From: Bacteroidia bacterium
Lineage (GTDB): Bacteria; Bacteroidota; Bacteroidia; AKYH767-A; 2013-40CM-41-45
DNA: 64,000 nt
Assembly: GCA_038206355.1 (NCBI GenBank)
Contig: JBBRAY010000008.1
Location: 17,975 to 81,974, forward strand
Reading direction: 5' to 3'
Each line of letters begins with the position of its first letter. Positions within the stretch are counted from its first letter, which is position 1. A program made the position numbers and the translations under genes. The notes beneath the pieces were generated by a model. That model was not told the origin of the DNA and searched no databases. It saw only the letters and a list, made by a program, of their open reading frames with translations. Below, in pieces: positions 5,240-34,908 of the stretch.

Positions 5240-7162
5240 ATGAATAAAGTTCTACTGCTCTTATGCATTTCCCTTTTATGTTTTGAAACTTCTTTCTCTC
5301 AGAAAAGAAACAACATCTGGTGTTTCGGAGACAGCGCTTTGATTGATTTTAACACTCCAAACAACCCTGTTACCGGAATGAGTTCTGTAAGAAGCCGAGG
5401 CTCATGTGTTTCTATTGCCGATACTTCGGGACAACTTCTTTTCTATGCATATACAAGATATGGTATGTCGGGCAATACAACTTTGGTCATGAATAAAAAT
5501 AACCAGATCATGCAAAATAGAAGCAATATTGTTGGTGAGGGCTGGTACACTGAATTAATAATAATTCCTTATGCAAATCAAAATGATTTGTATTATCTAT
5601 TCTCAATATCTGTGACCGGCAGCAGTCAACTAGGACTTTATTATTCTGTTATTGATATGAGTATGAACGGAGGGCTTGGAATCGTAACTCAAAAAAATAT
5701 GCAGTTATCGAATTTACAATCTGTGGATGGTATTCAGGCGATTAGACATTCTAATGGAAGAGACTGGTGGTTACTGTTTCTTCCATGGCCAGTCAATCCG
5801 TCAAATGAATTCCAAACTTTCTTAATTGATACGAATGGAATATCAGGTCCCATAATTCAAACAGTAGGATCAAACAGGGTTGGTGTTTCAGATGGAATCG
5901 CATTCACTCAAAATGGAACCAGATTTTATTTAAAAACTCATTTTGGATTGGTCGAAAGATACGATTTTGACAGGTGTTCAGGAGTTATTTCAAACCCTCT
6001 TAATATAGAGCCTGAGTCAAATGGTAATTTCTATTTTGGAATTGCTATTTCTAAAAACGATAGCATTTTATACTTATCAAATCAGAATTCTAATTCACAT
6101 GGTTACTTATTTCAATATAATTTAATTGCACCCAATATTGCAACTTCAAGAGATACAATTTTTGATTTTGATTACTCCATATTTCCCAATAATTGCGTTG
6201 GTCAATTACGTTTGGCGCCAGACAATAAAATCTATATGACTAGCACAGATTGGGGAACCAGCAGTCTCTACTATGATAGCATGACCTATACTCCGTATAA
6301 TATGAATCTTGGAGTTATAAATTCCCCGAATTATTTAGGAACTCCATGCAATTTTCAACCATTCAGTTTTTCTCTGGGAGGCAAAAGAACTTATTGGTCT
6401 TTACCCAACAACCCGAATTATGATTTAGGTCCGCTCGTAAACAGCCCTTGTTATTTCTCAGTAAATTTTTCTGCCACAGATTCAATTTGTGCCGGGAACT
6501 GCATTGACTTTACAAACTATACATTAAATGCTAATTCTTATCAATGGAATTTTCCAGGAGCAATACCGAATACCAGCACAGATATAAATCCGCAAAGTAT
6601 CTGTTACCTTAACCCGGGCAACTACGATGTAACACTTATTGCCTCAGATGCAACCGGAAGCGATACACTAACTCTCACAAACTATATTACAGTATTTCCA
6701 AGCCCTCCACAAGCCATCACTCAAATCGGAGATACGCTTTTTGCAATCCCTCAGGCAGGAACTTATCAGTGGTACTTTAACGGTATTGTAATCAACGGAG
6801 CAACAGGTAGTTTTTATGTTGCACAGCAGAGCGGAGATTATAATGTGGTTCATACGGATACAAACGGATGCGAAGTAGAAGCAGCGGTGACCAATGTTGT
6901 AGCGGATGTACAATCGAGAATTGACAATCGCCAATTGACAATTTTTCCAAATCCCGTGACAGACAAATTCACCATTCCTGCCAATCTATTCGAACCAGAA
7001 AAACCTGTCGACATCTCAATTTTCAATGTGCCCGGAGAAAAGCTATATCATACTATTGATTACAGAAGGGAAATGGACTGTGGATTTCTCTCTCCTGGGA
7101 TGTATATTCTGGAACTAATTTCTGATAGTAAAATCTACAGGGCAAAGTTTGTCAAAAATTAA
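5240..7162 (+). CDS. Secreted protein with a T9SS type-A C-terminal sorting domain (paralog of 9965..11413)
   Basis: Signal peptide MNKVLLLLCISLLCFETSFSQ. The C-terminus LTIFPNPVTDKFTIP...GMYILELISDSKIYRAKFVKN is a Por_Secre_tail. The N-terminal QKRNNIWCFGDSALIDFN, LLFYAY and NGRDWWLLF blocks are shared with the gene at 9965..11413. Confidence 0.75.
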   Translation: MNKVLLLLCISLLCFETSFSQKRNNIWCFGDSALIDFNTPNNPVTGMSSVRSRGSCVSIADTSGQLLFYAYTRYGMSGNTTLVMNKNNQIMQNRSNIVGEGWYTELIIIPYANQNDLYYLFSISVTGSSQLGLYYSVIDMSMNGGLGIVTQKNMQLSNLQSVDGIQAIRHSNGRDWWLLFLPWPVNPSNEFQTFLIDTNGISGPIIQTVGSNRVGVSDGIAFTQNGTRFYLKTHFGLVERYDFDRCSGVISNPLNIEPESNGNFYFGIAISKNDSILYLSNQNSNSHGYLFQYNLIAPNIATSRDTIFDFDYSIFPNNCVGQLRLAPDNKIYMTSTDWGTSSLYYDSMTYTPYNMNLGVINSPNYLGTPCNFQPFSFSLGGKRTYWSLPNNPNYDLGPLVNSPCYFSVNFSATDSICAGNCIDFTNYTLNANSYQWNFPGAIPNTSTDINPQSICYLNPGNYDVTLIASDATGSDTLTLTNYITVFPSPPQAITQIGDTLFAIPQAGTYQWYFNGIVINGATGSFYVAQQSGDYNVVHTDTNGCEVEAAVTNVVADVQSRIDNRQLTIFPNPVTDKFTIPANLFEPEKPVDISIFNVPGEKLYHTIDYRREMDCGFLSPGMYILELISDSKIYRAKFVKN

Positions 7163-9819: not shown

Positions 9820-9964
9820 AGGGGAGGTTTATATTTTTTCTGCCAATACATGTTGACACAATGAATACATACAAAAAACGGATTATTTAAACGCACCACT
9901 TTTCTGGTCAGCTAACAGAGAAAAGAGCATCAGCAAAAATGATTTTTGGCTTGCCCCTTCTGTT

Positions 9965-12133: not shown

Positions 12134-12491
12134 CCTTCGTTTCTACTTAGTTTGTCAAAGTTTATTTCTTGCAATGTCCGTTCAAATTGGTAGGCAGCCC
12201 GCAATTAAATACCAGAAACAAACCTACCTCTTATTTCGAATTATTCCAATATGCATATCAGGTAAACGATGGAATTTAAGACAGGACAAGTCAGAAGTTA
12301 CAAGTAGCAAGAAACAAGTCAGAAGTAGTACTGTATAAGGAGTATTTCCCTCGATTTCATTTCCATATCCAATGTCAGTGGGTTTACGATCCCTGCACTA
12401 CGGTAATTTCACCGTTCATATTTTCCCCGCCCCCAAAATGCTTTCCCACTTATAACGTTTACTTTTACCAACAAACGCCCCGTAAACAGTG

Positions 12492-20630: not shown

Positions 20631-20689
20631 AAAAAAAATACAGTATGATCATCAAAACTATTCCTTGTTCTCACCTAAAATCTATTTCA

Positions 20690-21353
20690 AATCCCGAAGG
20701 GATTAAATATCATTTACCCCTGATGAAGTCGGGGGTAAATGCGTACAAGTGATCTCCTTCAACCACGAAGTGGTTGAATATCAATCGAACAAATATTTCT
20801 CATCAAATTCCACTTCATGCTCAATGAGTAATTCAATATACTCATCTTTAAAGGTTTTCTTCCGGTGATGCTCAACCTGGTTTTGCACGTACCGAATCAG
20901 GTTTTTCTTCGCTTCGATAGCATAAGTGAATCCGCCGTATCCAATCTGCCATGAATCAAAAGCAGGGAAAAGGTTTTTAGACTTTATATATTCATTACTC
21001 GCGATCTTTATATCTTTTACCAGGAATGCCAAAGCCACCGTGGGATGAATGTGTGTAACAATATGAACATGATCTTCAATTCCGCCTATCTGGTACAGGT
21101 GGCATTTTTTCTTGGCGAGTATTCCTGCTATATATTTATACAGTTCAGGTCTGTTATTCGCTTCAAGTGTCTTGCGCCTATGCTTGGTACCGAATACGAT
21201 TTGATAAAGATTTTGATTGTAAGATCCCATGACTTTTTTTTTACAAATTAAATTCATGGTTTTCTATTGCGCATCCGATAAAAGCGAATTTTTTCCTTCA
21301 ATCCCGGAGGGATTGAATATCAGTTACCTCTGACCTAGTCAGAGGACAGTAAC
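20690..21353 (-). mobile_element. REP-associated tyrosine transposase (RAYT, IS200-like Y1 HuH) flanked by two copies of a compound REP hairpin element
   Basis: The CDS 20781..21257 (158 aa, or start at Met10 = 21230) carries HVHIVTHIHP, a HuH motif, and YGGFTY. Directly repeated flanks at 20690-20740 and 21299-21353: aatcccGAAGGGATTaAATATCAtTTACCcCTGA...GTCgGGgGtaaa versus aatcccGGAGGGATTgAATATCAgTTACCtCTGAcctaGTCAGAGGacagtaac. Each flank holds two hairpins with covarying stems. A perfect palindrome TTCAACCACgaaGTGGTTGAA lies at 20758-20778. Confidence 0.7.
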
Positions 21354-21616
21354 CCCTGACGCACTCAGTGCATATAAACCCGGAGAACAATAGTGAAAGA
21401 TAAATAATTCCGCTCGCCATGAAACCGGGTCCTTTATTCAATAGCCCCGGCTGAAGCGAATACCCCGGATGCGTTGGCCGGGGCGATGGCCGGAGTAGCA
21501 GTGGAAGACGGGACGGAGGTTTCTATGAAACAATAAACTTTCGCTCCCAAAAATCAGGATAGAATGTGACTGCTTCAGTCGTTCCTCCCTCGCAATTCCA
21601 TTTCCAATTTAATTCT

Positions 21617-27244: not shown

Positions 27245-30200
27245 GTGAAAAATCTTTTTAAGATTTATGTATTGATTGGATGCATATGGATGCACGGGAA
27301 AACGTATGCTTCAAATAATGTATCATTTGAATCCATTACGACTACCGATGGACTCATTCAGAATACGGTCCATAGTATTATTCAGGATCACAATGGATTT
27401 ATCTGGATTGGAACAGAAGACGGCCTCAACCGATATGATGGAAGACGATTTGTGCCCTACATTCATATAAGCAATGACAGCACCTCACTTTCCGATAATT
27501 TTATTGAGGTAATTTATGAAGACCACAATGGAAATATCTGGCTCGGTACACGTAACGGATTAAACATTTATGACGAAGTCAGGAATACCTTTATCCACGT
27601 TCCTCTCGGAAATTTTTCGAAAAATATTTATACCCCAGCCATTACTGAGGACGTCTATGGAAATATGTGGGTGGGGACTGATGGCTCCGGACTCTTAAAA
27701 ATCCGAATCGACTCTTCGGGAAACCGATTGACATTTAATGTGTCTCAGTTTCTGAATGAAACGACAGATAGCACCACAATACCAAGCAACACGGTCTTTT
27801 CCCTTGAAACCGATTTGCTGCACAACTTATGGATTGGGACGGAGTCGGGATTGTGTAAACTTCCGGCAAGCGAACTGAACTCCTCTGTTCCAACCACACA
27901 TTTCGAACACATCCTGATTTACCTCGACAATAAATGTCTCTTGAATAAGGAGCGGGTAAGTGAAATCGTAAACCATGGCAGCTGTATTTGGGTGGGGACC
28001 AAAGGCAAATTAATTTTTTGCCTCAACTATGGTGCTGGAAATAACAATGACTGGAGTTTGATTCGCACGAAAATAAAACCTACAATTCCTGACGCCATAA
28101 CGGTTGTTACCTCAATGGTTTTTGATGGCAGTGACAATCTCTGGGTAACTTATGGTGAAGATGGGTTATCAAAAATATCTTTTGAAAATGGCTATTATGT
28201 TGAAGAGCCTTATCGCCACGAAAAAGCAAAATTAAATTCCCTGCTTTCCGGTCCATGCCTGACAGTAATGAAAGACCGGACCAGTATGCTATGGATAGGT
28301 ACATTAAACGGCATATCTCTGCTTAACCCAACCAAAGAAAGATTTTCTGCTAAATTATTTCCGATTATTGAAAAAGATACTACCGATTTCATAACCCAGG
28401 CATTCTACCTTGAACGTAACCGGTACTATTTCTTTGGCACAAGCATAACAGGGCTTTTCATTTTCGACAACCAGTCAAAACATACGTACAGAATACATTC
28501 CATGTCCAAGCTGGATATTTTCAGCATCAAAAAAGATGACAAGGGAAATTTCTGGATTGGCACCAATGCCGGACTGGCATTCATTAAATACAGTTCTCTG
28601 TTTATTGATGACGGAAGAACGCAGACTATTAACAGCAATTGTGAAGTCCGGTTCTATAAAAAAAACGAGGCAGATCCTGACAACTCCATTCAAAGTAATC
28701 TCGTTTTTACACTGGCGCAGGATCACAATGGAAGGATATGGATTGGCACCGGTCAGGGGTTGTCCGGCATGGACATATCAACAGGAAAAATAAAACGCGT
28801 CAATCTCAACCCAAATAATTTAAGTCTTTTTGATGAGCGCATCATCCGTCATTTATTGGTTGACGCAGAAAATCATTTGTGGATTGCTACCGATGGCGGA
28901 TTATTCCAATATAATTTATCTACCAACATTTTTAAAAGGATATACGGTGGAAATTCAGATACAACAGGTCTTCCAAGTCAGCGTATTATTTGTCTGCATT
29001 CCGATTTCCGAAATCGTCTTTGGGTAGGAACAAACGGGGGCGGAATCTGCTATTACAATGCAGAAAAAAACACATTTCATTCCTATTCACAAAATGATGG
29101 CCTTGCAAGCAGTGTTGTGCACAGCATTCAGAGTGATCCATCCGGAAATTTATGGATCGGAACCAATAAGGGTATATCACGATTCAATCCCGAAAAAAAA
29201 ACAGCGACCAATTATGATTCAAGGGATGGACTTGCCGCTGACCATTTCAATGAAACTGCTTCAATGATTACGGCTGATGGGTTTTTATTTTTTGGCGGAA
29301 TAAAAGGATTCAATTGCTTTCACCCCGACAGCATACACATGAACAGTTTAATTCCGCCGGTAGTACTTACTGATTTCAAACTCATCGACAAATCTATTTT
29401 AATCGGGAACCCTCAAATGCGCGAGCTGATTCTGTCAGGGCAACCGTTGACTTTTAATCACGAAGAAAATAATTTCTCCTTTGAATTTGCTGCATTGAAC
29501 TTTATCAACACACAAAAAAATCAATATGCTGTAATGCTTGAGGGGTTTGACAAGAACTGGGTAAATCTGGGATCCCGGAATTATGTTTCCTATACTAACA
29601 TGAACCCCGGAAATTATACCCTCAGAGTGAAGGCATCAAATAATGATAACGTATGGAATGAAACGGGGATATCTCTTCCCATTCTAATCAAGGCCCCATT
29701 TTACCGTTACTGGTGGTTCAAAATATTACTTGCATTGGCCGTTGCCCTATTAATTTATATTTATTACCGGGAGCACATTAAGAATATTGAGAACAGGAAA
29801 GAAAAAGAAATTGCATTACATCAGACGCAGCTCAAAGAGCAGTTTCTTGCCAACATGAGCCATGAAATACGCACGCCGTTGAATGCAATCATGGGGATGA
29901 CGCGACTGCTCAAGGAAAAAAATCCGAAACCGGATCAGTTGAAATACCTGAATGCTATTACTCAGTCGTCAGATCATTTACTGGTGCTGATCAATGACAT
30001 TCTTGATTTCTCAAAAATCGAAGCCGGAAAAATTGAGCTTGAAAATATTCCATTCAATGTTTATGATGCCATACATAATGTGCATACAACATTGCGTTTC
30101 AAAGCAGAAGAAAAAGGATTGACATTTTCTGTTCGCATTTCACCGGAGGTTCCCAAAACGGTACTTGGCGATCCTGTTCGTCTGGCTCAGGTGTTGATCA

Positions 30201-30973
30201 ACCTCGCGGGTAATGCCATTAAATTTACGTCGAAGGGAAGCGTGATGATTACGTGCAGTGCTGTTGAAATAAACAAGAAACAGTCTAAGTTAAGCTTCAA
30301 TGTAATTGATACAGGTGTAGGAATTGCGGAAGAGAGCATCGGGAAAATATTTGAAAGTTTCACACAGGAAAACAGTAGCGTGAACCGTGAATTTGGTGGC
30401 ACCGGGCTCGGACTCGCGATTTCAAAACGCCTGATTGAAATGCAGGGCGGCTCTCTTGACGTAAGCAGCGTAAAGGGAGAAGGAAGTACATTCAATGTTT
30501 CAGTCCCTTTTACCATAGCACAACAGGAAGTTGAAGTAGCTATTGTTGAAACTGTGGATCCGGATATCCGCAGGAAAATGGTTGACCTGAAAATTTTGCT
30601 TGTAGATGATAATCATTTCAACCAGCTTGTTGCCATTGATACGCTTGAACTGGAACTCACACGTGCAAATATTGATGTTGCAGAAAATGGGGAGGAAGCC
30701 ATCAGACTGGTGAATGAAAATAATTACGACATCGTATTGATGGATGTACAAATGCCTGTGATGAACGGGCTCGAAGCCACACGTGCGATCAGGAAATTAT
30801 CTGCACCCAAAAACCAGACACGCATCATTGCCATGACTGCCAGCGCCATGAAAACGGAGGTGGAGCGCTGCTTTGCCGCAGGCATGGACGACTTTGTTGC
30901 CAAACCTTTTAATACTGTTGAGCTGCTGAAAAAGATGTCGCGGCTTGTAGTACGCTTGAAAGTAGTCGCATAA
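27245..30973 (+). CDS. Hybrid sensor histidine kinase/response regulator with periplasmic two-component-regulator propeller repeats and a Y_Y_Y domain
   Basis: Repeated WIGT/LWIGT propeller blades, one TM (WWFKILLALAVALLIYIYY), HisKA (MSHEIRTPLNAI), HATPase (GTGLGLAISKRLIEMQGG) and REC (LLVDDN...MDVQMP). It ends in REC with no output domain, and GTG is the apparent start. Confidence 0.85.
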   Translation: MKNLFKIYVLIGCIWMHGKTYASNNVSFESITTTDGLIQNTVHSIIQDHNGFIWIGTEDGLNRYDGRRFVPYIHISNDSTSLSDNFIEVIYEDHNGNIWLGTRNGLNIYDEVRNTFIHVPLGNFSKNIYTPAITEDVYGNMWVGTDGSGLLKIRIDSSGNRLTFNVSQFLNETTDSTTIPSNTVFSLETDLLHNLWIGTESGLCKLPASELNSSVPTTHFEHILIYLDNKCLLNKERVSEIVNHGSCIWVGTKGKLIFCLNYGAGNNNDWSLIRTKIKPTIPDAITVVTSMVFDGSDNLWVTYGEDGLSKISFENGYYVEEPYRHEKAKLNSLLSGPCLTVMKDRTSMLWIGTLNGISLLNPTKERFSAKLFPIIEKDTTDFITQAFYLERNRYYFFGTSITGLFIFDNQSKHTYRIHSMSKLDIFSIKKDDKGNFWIGTNAGLAFIKYSSLFIDDGRTQTINSNCEVRFYKKNEADPDNSIQSNLVFTLAQDHNGRIWIGTGQGLSGMDISTGKIKRVNLNPNNLSLFDERIIRHLLVDAENHLWIATDGGLFQYNLSTNIFKRIYGGNSDTTGLPSQRIICLHSDFRNRLWVGTNGGGICYYNAEKNTFHSYSQNDGLASSVVHSIQSDPSGNLWIGTNKGISRFNPEKKTATNYDSRDGLAADHFNETASMITADGFLFFGGIKGFNCFHPDSIHMNSLIPPVVLTDFKLIDKSILIGNPQMRELILSGQPLTFNHEENNFSFEFAALNFINTQKNQYAVMLEGFDKNWVNLGSRNYVSYTNMNPGNYTLRVKASNNDNVWNETGISLPILIKAPFYRYWWFKILLALAVALLIYIYYREHIKNIENRKEKEIALHQTQLKEQFLANMSHEIRTPLNAIMGMTRLLKEKNPKPDQLKYLNAITQSSDHLLVLINDILDFSKIEAGKIELENIPFNVYDAIHNVHTTLRFKAEEKGLTFSVRISPEVPKTVLGDPVRLAQVLINLAGNAIKFTSKGSVMITCSAVEINKKQSKLSFNVIDTGVGIAEESIGKIFESFTQENSSVNREFGGTGLGLAISKRLIEMQGGSLDVSSVKGEGSTFNVSVPFTIAQQEVEVAIVETVDPDIRRKMVDLKILLVDDNHFNQLVAIDTLELELTRANIDVAENGEEAIRLVNENNYDIVLMDVQMPVMNGLEATRAIRKLSAPKNQTRIIAMTASAMKTEVERCFAAGMDDFVAKPFNTVELLKKMSRLVVRLKVVA

Positions 30974-30983
30974 TTTTTTTGCG

Positions 30984-31127
30984 AGCTCCATAGGAGCGCC
31001 CTGTTTGTTAGCTCCATCGGAGCTTCCTGTTTGTAGCTCCATCGTTGCGTCCTGTTTGTAGCTCCATAGGAGCGCCCTGTTTGTTAGCTCCATAGGAGCG
31101 CCCTGTTTGTAGCACCGTAGGTGCGGC
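30984..31127. repeat. Tandem array of about 5.5 copies of a 25-26 bp palindrome-containing repeat AGCTCCATAGGAGCGCCCTGTTTGT(T)
   Basis: Units start at 30984, 31010, 31035, 31060 and 31086, with a degenerate sixth at 31111. Each carries GCTCC-N3-GGAGC. The last degenerate copy reads GCACCgtaGGTGC, a compensatory T>A/A>T pair. The array sits 10 bp after the kinase stop. Track ORFs 30724..31017 and 30797..31129 (minus) are repeat artefacts (iterated MELTNRALLWS). Confidence 0.8.
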
Positions 31128-31230
31128 ATGATAATTTTTGCCGTTCGTCAAAATCCCTTCTCAGCAAAGATTTGTTTTATATAGTTTTAGCGGAATATAT
31201 TCAAGCTCATGAGAATTTTAAAATTGATGA

Positions 31231-31983
31231 GAGCGGAACTTACAATGGTCCGGATTGGTTGGCGATGGATCTCTGTTTCATGGCGGAGAACAGATCCAAC
31301 AAACAAATGACAATGGTTATATCTTTTTCTGTGGTGGAGTCAATAACAACGGCATATGCAAAATTGACTCCGGCGGAAATTTTCTTTGGGCGAAATCCTT
31401 CAACGCAAATTATAATCTACATATGTATTCTCTTGTTCAAACAAGTGAAGGAGGAATCGCCTTTAGTGGAAATTTAACTGACACCATTGCCGGCAGTCAT
31501 GCTTTCATTGCAAAATTGGATTCAATGGGCGATGTGGAGTGGACTAAATATTACAATGATTCACTTTCCTGTTCAACAGGAGTATATACTTTAGTACAAA
31601 CATTCGATGGGGGATTTGCATTTTCCGGGTGGCATGACACACCATCCTACCAATCTTTAGCTTTGGTAAAAACAGATTCATTGGGGAACCCCACCTGCCC
31701 GGGCTCGGATATCCCGGGATTTCAATTTAATTTTATTGTCAGTGCCGACAGCCTGATTACCCTGAATTCTCAATTACTCTGGCTTCCGGATTCCACAGTA
31801 ATTTCTAATTTCAACAATCTTTCTTATTCCCAGGAGTCTTATTGTTTTGCGCCGATAAATACTACTATCGTTGAAACTAATTATGTACCACTTGTAATCT
31901 CCCCCAACCCTTTCCACTACTCCGCCACTATTTCTTCAAATGGTCAATTAGTTATTGGCAATGCACAAATAAATTGGTATTAA
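31231..31983 (+). pseudogene. Fragment or pseudogene of a T9SS-secreted beta-propeller-like protein (family of 49142..50674)
   Basis: Open frame from the stop at 31228 with no ATG or signal peptide. An overlapping second-frame ORF 31121..31477 is present. The KIDSGGNFLWAKSF, GGIAFSG and GGFAFSGW blocks parallel KMDEDGNFYWSKTY and FGFFLTGCY in the 49142 gene. Only the first 13 residues of a CTD (ISPNPFHYSATIS) remain before the stop. Confidence 0.5.
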
Positions 31984-32448
31984 CCTCAGGGCAATCCCGA
32001 TAACTATCGGGACTGAACCCAAATTTCCGGGGCAAGCCCCGGGCAATTAACCAAGCCTTCTCGTCCGCCGAAGCGGACGCGAAGGCGGATTAAAAATCTA
32101 CAACGCAATGGGCTCACTTGTCCGCGATGAACCCATATTAAATATTACCTCTTACACATTACATCGCGAAGGATTGAGCGATGGCTTGTATTTTTACGAG
32201 CTACGAACCAACGACTCCGGGTTGATCGGTAAGGGAAAATTTGTAATTGAATAATATAACCGTTGAATGAAAATGTGATTTATCTTTTCAAATTCCTTAT
32301 GGTTTTTATGAGCGATAATCATAATCATCATACAAAATTCGCGTCCCAATGGATCGGGACGGCAATTTCTGCTTTAAACCACCATACTCTCCCCCAGTTC
32401 CCAACTCAGCAACGGCATATTGCATACCTGACATAATTCGCACTTGGT

Positions 32449-33900
32449 TTAGGTGATCCAATGATCCCTTTCATTGTATGGAAATTTATTCACCTGACTT
32501 TTCAGTTTGAATTTTTGTTTCAATGCCAGCGTTCCCAATATCGGATTCGTGAAATAATATTTCAATGCCCGCAGCGGGCGCTTCATCAACTGCGTGCTCG
32601 CCCGGGGATAACGGGTAAGTAACCGGACGCAAACAATATCAAGATTTTTTTCCAGCGCATCTTCATGCAATACGTCAACATCAATACCGTAGCCAATCGT
32701 AAGCGCATCGCCACCCCATTCATTGTCGAGTGAATAATGTAACAGCACGCTTGACGTACGCACCAACAAAATAGCGTGTTCAGCAATTGCATCAGCGCGA
32801 TCCACAATAAATTCATTACCATCAAACTTTACATTGATAAAACTATTCTTCTTCGCATCGCGCAGCCGGATAGAAAAATTCACTTCCTCCAGTACACGGC
32901 GATGATACAATGTCCGGTTCTTGCCGAGGAAATATTTTATTTTTCCGACGAGAACATTTATCAAATCATCATCTGCATAAGCGATTTTATTCGCCTCGAT
33001 AATTTCTGAAGCATATACCTTATCAATGGTATGATGCAATGATCCGTCTTTCAACTGCGCATAATAAGGAGAAGCCGCATGGAAATTCAATTCTTCAAAA
33101 TAATCTCCCGGATACAACAAATGAAATCGGATGGTAGTTTCTTTTTCGTAATAGTTGTGATAATATTCTTCGAGCATTCCTCTCGGGAATTTCACATCAT
33201 TGATCCACCGTTTGTCGTCATTCAGAAGCACGAAGCCCGGTGCAAACGGAGCAACTGCTTTTGGCTGGAGGTATTGAATAAATTTACACAACTGGTTCCC
33301 GAAATATTGTTCCCGCATTTTTCCAATCTCAAAATCATCCTTGGAAGCGAAGTGAACCGTGTTCGGAAAATATCCGGCACCACTCCAACCACTCAGCAGC
33401 AAATCGATTTTAGGAAAATTTTTTCAGATCTCCTTTAAAAACATTTCTACCACCATGGCATGATGTGAGTTGAGCGCATCATTGATATTGACAACCACAA
33501 ATCCATTGCACTCAATCACGATCACACTTTCCAGTGCAAAACCTACATAAGTTATGGTTGTCGTAGCAGAGAGTCTGTATTTGTGAAAACTTATTGCCTC
33601 CGTAAGATTCCGGAATCCATGGTTGTCAAAAAAATCCTTCACGCCTGTTCTCCATTGATAGGGATAAAAAACCTGCGCATCTTTAGGAAGCTCCCCCAAA
33701 GATTCTTCATGCAGATGATCCTCATGCCCATGCGAGTACAAAATATTTTTGACTCCTTTAAGCATGGAATAATTCACAGGCTTTGGAAAAAGAAACCACT
33801 GATTCTGATAAGCCGAACCTTTTAGCCACGGGTCAATTACAATGGAAGTGTCGCCCGTGTCAATGTAAATGCAGGAATGACAGATGTATTCTATTTTCAT
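32449..33900 (-). pseudogene. MBL-fold metallo-hydrolase-like gene interrupted by an in-frame TGA at 33426..33424
   Basis: The upstream ORF 33424..33900 has HGHEDH (HxHxDH). The downstream ORF 32449..33402 is in the same frame. Read-through gives ...FLKEI*KNFPKIDLLLSGWSGAGYFPNTVHF..., placing the late His motif of the fold after the stop. No SECIS-like hairpin follows the UGA. Confidence 0.55.
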
Positions 33901-34739: not shown

Positions 34740-34908
34740 TTAACCTATAGACAAGAAACAATAGACAGTAGACTATAAGTAAATAACTTCATTCAAACCA
34801 CTTGCCTGGTGTGATGGCGCCCTTTAGGGTTAGGAGTGCACGTGGCAATGGGAAGTAGACAATAGACATTAGACAAAATTTAAACGTTCATAATAATAAT
34901 AATAGACA

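Follow-up and report, generated by a model that had tools for sequence, protein, structure and literature searches.

The element considered here is a short tandem array of hairpin-forming units in a 64,000-nucleotide stretch of contig JBBRAY010000008.1 (hereafter the window), from the genome assembly GCA_038206355.1 of a Bacteroidia bacterium. A gene for a hybrid sensor kinase with Reg_prop, Y_Y_Y, HisKA, HATPase_c and REC domains (27245..30973, + strand) ends with its stop codon at 30973. After 10 further nucleotides the array begins in the sense-strand 3′ flank of the kinase, running from 30984 to 31130 (+) as five full head-to-tail units of 25–26 nucleotides plus a divergent sixth copy, with no spacers between them. 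It is followed by AT-rich DNA and by the remnant of another gene. An earlier note on this DNA, made from the sequence alone, had reported a spacerless tandem array of units of this length after the kinase stop, and both Tandem Repeats Finder and direct reading agree with it. Our best reading, to which we assign a probability of roughly 0.8, is that repetitive extragenic palindromic (REP) elements are clustered here head to tail, and that their family owes its mobility to a small tyrosine transposase of the IS200-like Y1 (HUH) type. It is neither an operator specific to the kinase nor a bespoke terminator.

The units belong to two types, R1 and R2, that recur throughout the wider family described below. 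Unit 1 (30984..31009, +) is an R1 copy of 26 nucleotides, AGCTCCATAGGAGCGCCCTGTTTGTT, with the hairpin GCTCC-ATA-GGAGC. Unit 2 (31010..31034, +), also of R1 type and 25 nucleotides long, carries three differences and has a 6-bp stem, AGCTCC/GGAGCT, and unit 3 (31035..31059, +; 25 nucleotides) is decayed: it reads GCTCC-ATC-GTTGC, with GTTGC as its 3′ arm, and has lost the hairpin. Unit 4 (31060..31085, +; 26 nucleotides) has the same sequence as unit 1, and unit 5 (31086..31110, +; 25 nucleotides) equals units 1 and 4 minus an extra T and ends in a TTTGT/AG junction. The terminal copy, AGCACCGTAGGTGCGGCATG (31111..31130, +), is of R2 type, with the stem GCACC/GGTGC and without the TTTGTAG tail. 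Direct reading bears out the description of units 1 and 4 as identical and of units 2 and 3 as divergent; the statement that every unit holds GCTCC-N3-GGAGC is right for four of the five full units but wrong for unit 3. R1 starts and ends in AG, and neighboring spacerless units overlap by that dinucleotide. All six copies lie on the + strand, and an inverted partner is absent within the window.

Tandem Repeats Finder places the array at 30984–31125 (period 25, 5.6 copies, 86% matches, score 196), outscoring by far every other tandem repeat in the window, and it also accommodates a 51-nucleotide period. Searching the 64-kb window with the array 25-mer at up to three mismatches gave four matches, all in the array, where shuffled sequences lead one to expect none; a structure-aware search that allowed any 5-bp stem found no second copy of the family there. 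The hairpin of unit 1 has a calculated dG of −4.2 kcal/mol as DNA and −7.2 kcal/mol as RNA. Intact units in general come to about −7 kcal/mol as RNA, and unit 3 to 0 as DNA and −0.5 as RNA. The region as a whole folds somewhat better than shuffled sequences on both strands (z scores of −2.85 and −3.44), in line with what repeated hairpins would give.

The unit is found in many other genomes. We scanned a collection holding one genome per prokaryotic species (596 Gb) with the pattern AGCTCCATNGNNGCNNCCTGTTTGT, whose 20 fixed bases should give about one chance match, and obtained 96 loci (individual loci carry L numbers below). Their hosts are labelled as many orders of Bacteroidota, Ignavibacteria, Brocadia-type Planctomycetota (including contigs of 1.6 Mb) and two metagenome-assembled genomes (MAGs) of Desulfobacterota, with single matching contigs labelled Acidobacteriota and Hyphomicrobiales. 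The unit consensus is AG-CTCC-RTM-GGAG-CGNC-CT-GTTT-GTAG, 25–27 nucleotides long with a GC-rich 5-bp stem and a 3-nucleotide loop. In the usual layout an R1 copy ending CCTGTTTGTAG is followed by a spacer of about 25 nucleotides and an R2 copy stopping at CCTGT, and the inverted complement often lies next to the pair. There are 339 loose copies, with two or more in 78 loci and up to 13 in single 8-kb loci, and several assemblies hold three to five separate loci each by the strict pattern. Of 160 neighboring pairs on the same strand, 137 are spaced by 45–54 nucleotides and only three by 25 nucleotides.

These copies are almost exclusively intergenic, one of about 126 clusters lying inside an open reading frame (ORF) of at least 150 amino acids. 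The pattern that the earlier note had named as refuting its proposal, that of a generic REP or minisatellite, is seen across genomes: the unit stands at many unrelated intergenic sites in variable copy number. Viral contigs gave 0 matches and plasmids none, and a phage or plasmid vehicle was not seen. In a string search of the literature the 13-nucleotide hairpin occurred in no paper of the library searched, and its 11-mers matched unrelated primers only. Many of the matches lie within about 100 nucleotides of the end of a locus or contig (L001, L002, L019, L025, L029, L055, L080 and others). Their position suggests that short-read assemblies are broken by repeats of this family and that copy numbers in MAGs, perhaps including that of the window, are likely underestimated.

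Pairing within the stem is conserved across the family. In the 683 kb of loci there are 192 occurrences of CTGTTTGTAG, a 10-mer used as an anchor, against 1.3 expected, and a hairpin precedes nearly all of them. Of the 112 non-seed copies, which are defined by CTGTTTGTAG alone, 80 have the five pairs of the stem intact; compensated stems, such as GCCCC/GGGGC, GCATC/GATGC and GCCTC/GAGGC, are present in many. At stem pair 4/12 the counts are 142 TA, 31 CG, 4 AT and 1 GC. It had been supposed that the last copy of the array, GCACC-GTA-GGTGC, arose by a compensatory change and implied selection on pairing. The same stem recurs as R2 in L005, L020, L063, L055, L062 and L087, and, as covariation spans the whole family, the terminal unit is simply the family's R2-type variant. 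Selection on hairpin pairing is thus borne out at the level of the family (80 of 112 stems intact) but not at this locus, where the lost hairpin of unit 3, together with five orthologous loci that have no array (see below), argues against it.

The same covariation bears on the idea that the units are binding sites. As an operator or iteron array for a dimeric DNA-binding protein, whether it served the kinase pathway as its output target or resembled a replication origin, the array would offer one GCTCC-N3-GGAGC dyad per intact unit, at a 25–26-bp spacing that is incompatible with the helical repeat, and an AT-rich stretch beyond. However, the sequence stands at about 100 unrelated intergenic sites in several phyla and flanks a transposase gene, and the covariation of the stem preserves pairing and not a fixed protein-recognition sequence. 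In addition, neither a regulator gene nor a rep gene is adjacent, and the orthologous kinase loci are without the array. The operator array for a dimeric regulator that the earlier note had listed among its candidate roles is, on these grounds, highly improbable.

The spacerless form seen in the window is a minority form of the family, yet it is present elsewhere. L052 has spacerless runs of three and five units with the 25-nucleotide period, the five-unit run lying immediately upstream of a Y1 transposase gene; L026 has a degenerate run, and the metagenome contigs L102/L103 have seven units. All of these arrays, and that of the window, share the junction TTTGT/AG/CTCC. In a metagenome scan, a strict pattern of two spacerless hairpins gave 0 matches, and a looser junction pattern gave four loci.

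Short hairpin repeats with a repeat–spacer–repeat periodicity of about 50 nucleotides, as found elsewhere in the family, might bring to mind a degenerate CRISPR array or some other structured RNA gene. The window array, however, has no spacers at all, and the "spacers" elsewhere are themselves repeated (L066, L029, L080). A clustering of every ORF that lies up to 2.5 kb from a repeat brought out no recurrent cas-like neighbor. The covariance models of Rfam 15 gave no match at E ≤ 1 across 29000–33000 of the window, and no Rfam family overlapped the repeats in eight other loci at E ≤ 0.1. We consider the chance that the array is of this kind to be negligible.

What ORF clustering did find was a single recurrent neighbor that is plausibly linked to the repeats, a protein of about 150 amino acids with the Pfam domain Y1_Tnp, present in 16 loci by clustering and in 19 by tblastn. 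On the strand of the Y1 gene, an R1–spacer–R2 module reaches the start codon, and an R2–spacer–R1 module lies on the opposite strand beyond the stop codon. The copies converge on the Y1 gene in nine of the ten loci that have repeats on both sides; this layout, that of a REPtron, is seen in L007, L020, L040, L052, L056, L063, L065, L072 and L080, and L002 is atypical. Upstream copies are sense-oriented in all 17 loci that have them; several of these loci (L007, L065, L085) have them right next to the start codon. Genes for Reg_prop-type hybrid kinases also lie 0.1–1.6 kb from a repeat in five loci (L042, L058, L089, L090, L094), a proximity that we judged to be due to chance, such genes being numerous and long in Bacteroidota.

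The linked enzymes are of a recognisable kind. An alignment of 16 of them with the Y1 protein encoded in the window contains the motifs DH[TIV]H, WQ and Y(I/V)xNQxxHH, together with a tail reading FKEEY..F(D/N)EKYLF. This is, compared by motif only, the signature of TnpA-Y1 subclass 1.2, which comprises a DH[IV]H-type HuH, WQ, Y---Q--HH, a length of about 148 amino acids and a specific C-terminal domain (Quentin et al. 2018, PMC6006769). Subclass 1.2 is known from Bacteroidetes and is listed there as lacking REPs (Quentin et al. 2018, PMC6006769). The motif-linked proteins are mostly 65–82% identical to one another (the outliers L002 and L074, 52–59%), and Y1 proteins whose genes have other flanking hairpin families are 30–45% identical to them. 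As far as these sequence comparisons go, they indicate that enzyme clade and repeat type co-vary, as in known pairs of REPs and REP-associated tyrosine transposases (RAYTs).

Several steps can be proposed by analogy with better-known enzymes. The Y1 transposases of IS608 and the TnpA(REP) proteins of Escherichia coli, Stenotrophomonas and Marinomonas bind a folded hairpin in single-stranded DNA (PMC8266576). They cleave at CT or CA, a choice made through the tetranucleotide 5′ of the stem, in which A3G4 of GTAG pairs with CT (PMC8266576). In the present family, two invariant dinucleotides fit this rule: the AG directly 5′ of the stem and, on its 3′ side, the CT within CCTGT. First, the cognate Y1 enzyme would bind a hairpin that has folded in single-stranded DNA, such as that at a replication fork. 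Second, it would cleave and rejoin the DNA at a short conserved site near the hairpin, the candidates being the CT of CCTGT and the TTTGT/AG boundary, with the conserved AG 5′ of the stem serving as guide in the manner of A3G4 in known REPs. Third, by such reactions it would mobilise R1/R2 modules. Finally, unit-length copies of 25 nucleotides might be added beside an existing copy, either by cleavage and ligation at AG/CT sites or by replication slippage; since units begin and end in AG and share the TTTGT/AG/CTCC junction, unit-length addition is conceivable. The effect on the host is probably neutral, and any effect of the 3′ hairpins on the kinase mRNA a by-product.

A number of points weigh against the reading of the array as a transposase-mobilised REP cluster. 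The 64-kb window contains only one locus of the family, and, as the sole Y1 gene of the window is non-cognate, the array may be an orphan. Most of the loci come from MAGs, in which some phylum labels may be wrong and copy numbers from short reads misjudged. The conserved GTAG lies 9 nucleotides 3′ of the hairpin and not directly 5′ of it, where only AG is conserved; it is in spacerless arrays alone, that of the window among them, that GTAG comes to lie next to the stem. The linked proteins score 34.6 and 36.5 bits with the NCBIfam model for RAYTs (NF047646), against a cut-off of 80, and 63.9 and 64.5 with that for IS200/IS605 (NF033573), where the cut-off of 55 is passed; by analogy the enzymes would be RAYT-like in their working, but they are not filed as RAYT members. 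The proposed cleavage sites and route of amplification, lastly, are carried over from other enzymes.

Some of these points would suit an orphan minisatellite, in which one R1 and R2 pair landed, the five R1 units arose by slippage or unequal exchange with no part played by a transposase, and the cognate Y1 gene has gone from the genome. Neither a further copy nor a cognate Y1 gene is present in the window, and units 1, 4 and 5 are alike and units 2 and 3 drifted, as recent slippage or conversion predicts, with which the 51-nucleotide period also agrees. Tandem reiteration is moreover common in classical GTAG REP families (PMC3733652). On the other hand, spacerless arrays in unrelated genomes share both the TTTGT/AG/CTCC junction and the 25-nucleotide period, which a site-specific step fits at least equally well, and the array of L052 lies directly beside an intact Y1 gene. 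The inspection, furthermore, covered 64 kb of the genome. We regard such an origin as a serious possibility that falls somewhat short of even odds. The "minisatellite scar" of the earlier note comes closest of its three candidate roles but misses the origin of the unit in a mobile element, which the REP cluster reading supplies.

Compared with known systems, the family most resembles the REPs and bacterial interspersed mosaic elements (BIMEs), with their RAYTs, that form the REPtrons of E. coli, Pseudomonas, Stenotrophomonas and Marinomonas. It shares with them a short extragenic hairpin with a conserved GTAG and a CT nearby, copies that are single, paired or clustered (including head-to-tail reiteration), one small Y1/HUH gene between inverted copies (in other genomes, not in the window) and an enzyme clade that co-varies with repeat type. 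It differs in that the linked enzymes have the signature of class 1, subclass 1.2, instead of class 2, and fail the RAYT model. Unlike in classical REPs, GTAG is found 9 nucleotides 3′ of the hairpin, only 5 bp make up the stem and the standard module is a bipartite doublet, R1–(about 25 nucleotides)–R2; and, whereas classical REPs are lineage-specific, the core of this family is nearly invariant across phyla. REPINs are reportedly inverted REP doublets (Bertels and Rainey 2011), two inverted REPs making one long hairpin. The gene-less, palindromic multi-copy elements of 180–255 bp that the family forms in Brocadia-type and Desulfobacterota MAGs, contigs of 1.6 Mb included for the former, resemble REPINs and BIMEs, but each of their arms has two hairpins and not one. 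The window array, with co-oriented units and no inverted partner, is not a REPIN.

A second comparison is with the IS200/IS605 insertion sequences (IS), such as IS608 and ISDra2, which have a related Y1/HUH enzyme and subterminal hairpins that are recognised in single-stranded DNA. The spacing in the family (hairpin, about 10 nucleotides, GTAG, about 23 nucleotides, next hairpin) presumably resembles the junction of right and left ends in IS608. In contrast to these elements, however, the flanking hairpins of the family are inverted and not direct, there is no tnpB gene, the repeats far outnumber the gene, and identical multi-copy IS were not seen. The linked enzymes match the subclass 1.2 of Quentin et al. 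in DHxH, WQ, Y---Q--HH, a length of about 150 amino acids, a conserved C-terminal tail and their presence in Bacteroidetes, but differ from the published subclass, listed as REP-less, in that their genes are flanked by hairpin families. Intrinsic terminators and REP-type stabilisers of mRNA, finally, likewise place GC-rich hairpins just past a stop codon on the sense strand; here, in contrast to intrinsic terminators, the stems have no direct U-tract and the sequence is common to unrelated loci in both orientations.

The kinase itself appears unaffected in length by the array. Five syntenic orthologous kinases in related species, 66–74% identical, have the same length of 1242 amino acids and the same C terminus, which means that the array did not truncate the kinase; we rejected for the same reason the possibility that it had cut off an AraC-type output domain. 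A domain search agrees with the earlier note that the kinase ends in REC and has no DNA-binding output domain. In none of the five syntenic orthologous loci examined is an array found after the kinase stop. Their intergenic spacers are variable and contain other, unrelated small repeats: in L098, TCACTTAGTC-like repeats lie at 9860–9925, in the spacer behind the orthologous kinase, and in L106 the corresponding spacer has ACCTGTCAGGTC three to four times and a duplicated block of about 35 nucleotides (6806–6990 and 7040–7095). The post-kinase spacer looks like a repeat hot spot across the whole group.

These loci bear on a function of the array in the kinase mRNA. A REP cluster, transcribed along with the kinase gene, could have been exapted as a 3′-untranslated element, a role with which its REP origin would be consistent: it might terminate or attenuate transcription, hinder 3′–5′ exonucleases or dampen translation close to the point of termination. 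In E. coli, mRNA that lies upstream of REPs can be stabilised by them. The sense-strand array begins 10 nucleotides past the stop codon, within the 15 nucleotides that matter in a precedent from E. coli: according to Liang et al. 2015, as cited in PMC12306157, the upstream gene can be translated less when a REP lies within 15 nucleotides of the stop codon. The folding of the intact units as RNA and the z score of −2.85 for the region favor this role as well. Unit 2, moreover, passes a simple scan for terminator-like sites, and no other such site lies before the promoter-like region of the neighboring gene. Yet unit 2 is the only unit to pass, the others having CGCCC between the stem and UGUUUGU, the hairpins lack an adjacent U-tract, unit 3 has decayed, and the five orthologous loci do without the array altogether. 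Nor does the family as a whole show a significant orientation bias towards the upstream gene that would hint at termination (18 sense versus 11 antisense). We therefore consider a functional 3′ element unlikely; the terminator or insulator role that the earlier note had listed would at most be a secondary effect.

Homology with the orthologous loci resumes at about 31131 and takes in both TATAGTTTTAGCGG, which resembles a promoter, and the following gene's start codon. That gene is the remnant of one for a protein with a type IX secretion system (T9SS) tail (31209..31983, +), in which the start ATG and TATAGTTTTAGCGG are conserved and the body is out of frame and shortened. The view that the downstream gene is fragmentary is confirmed by the conserved start at 31209 and an out-of-frame ORF of 242 amino acids, compared with 507–528 amino acids in the orthologous loci. 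The array is bracketed by two 9-nucleotide direct repeats, ATAATTTTT, the left one (30970..30978, +) overlapping the stop TAA and continuing ..TTGCG, and the right one (31131..31139, +) continuing ..GCCG at the point where native intergenic sequence restarts; orthologous loci have one stretch similar to ATAATTTTT. The pair could be a target duplication, insertion microhomology or a chance occurrence in AT-rich DNA. By these comparisons the array is an insertion specific to this lineage: it occupies a variable spacer and lies upstream of the region that resembles a promoter of the decaying neighbor gene.

An ORF starting from an ATG in the last unit (MIIFAVRQN..) was considered as the remnant of a transposase N terminus (..QIVFAVKGRQN..). 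We rejected this because the stretch is homologous to native intergenic DNA of orthologous loci that contain neither repeat nor transposase, and tblastn gave matches only at E > 0.4. The DNA downstream of the array (31209–33900) is rearranged relative to the orthologous loci. Two minus-strand ORFs there are not present in those loci, one at 32449–33402 with no Pfam match and one at 33424–33900 that covers no more than the N-terminal part of a metallo-beta-lactamase fold. The two are possibly pieces of a single split gene. Elsewhere in the window, intergenic micro-repeats of heptamers (ATAGACA, ACAAGTC, ACAATTG) lie at 34747–34904, 12286–12327 and 6910–6943, the first of these stretches being between yceD and rpmF/plsX.

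The Y1/HUH transposase gene of the window (20781..21257, −) encodes 158 amino acids with the subclass 1.2 signature (DHVH, WQ, YVQNQVEHH). Its product is 32–42% identical to the motif-linked Y1 proteins, and its gene is flanked by a different hairpin module, [TTCAATCCC-GRA-GGGATTGAA] + ATATCA + [TTACCYCTGA..TCRGRGG]. Copies of this module lie at 20684–20741, at 20755–20783 (with the compensated stem TTCAACCAC/GTGGTTGAA) and at 21294–21370, all in one orientation, which is IS200-like rather than REPtron-like, and there are no further copies in the window. Because it belongs to another clade and has other flanking hairpins, we rejected this enzyme as the one that mobilised the array, and the 64-kb window holds no cognate Y1 gene. 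A comparable case is the Y1 gene of L083 (5746–6207), on a Brocadia-type contig, whose product is 40–45% identical to the motif-linked proteins. In L083 5480–6500 the gene is bracketed by inverted multi-hairpin modules consisting of GCCCGAAGGGC, an AT-rich linker and CAGGGGGYGAAGCCCCCTG, an architecture similar to what is found on either side of the window's own Y1 gene. There are thus three clades of subclass 1.2-type genes, each with its own flanking hairpin family, which suggests that, contrary to the published summary, genes of this subclass generally carry structured flanks.

Neither the repeat family nor its association with subclass 1.2 Y1 enzymes seems to have been described before. 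We tentatively suggest, at somewhat less than even odds, that they make up an undescribed REP system in which a near-invariant R1–spacer–R2 repeat is joined to a subclass 1.2 Y1 enzyme and which is spread over Bacteroidota, Ignavibacteria, Brocadia-type Planctomycetota and Desulfobacterota at the least. Were this true, partnerships between REPs and transposases would have arisen more than once, in class 1 and in class 2 Y1 enzymes. The system would then move horizontally and not be a vertically inherited, lineage-specific domesticate, and the TTTGT/AG/CTCC junction of spacerless arrays would be the footprint of the cleavage–ligation site.

For the bacterium itself, the array is an ordinary kind of element. 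It says nothing specific about the signalling output of the kinase, so that a false lead is removed, and in annotation it should be masked as a REP cluster. The larger interest lies in the family. The biology of REPs and RAYTs rests almost entirely on Proteobacteria, in which REPs are lineage-specific; here one repeat core occurs in several phyla and brackets a clade of Y1 genes thought to be REP-less. In practical terms, the repeat is a marker that can break short-read assemblies and could pass for a CRISPR-like or regulatory array in MAGs of Bacteroidota. More generally, the family offers a test case for how Y1 enzymes choose their hairpins and cleavage sites, for the horizontal travel of REPs and for the origin of head-to-tail clusters such as the one described here.

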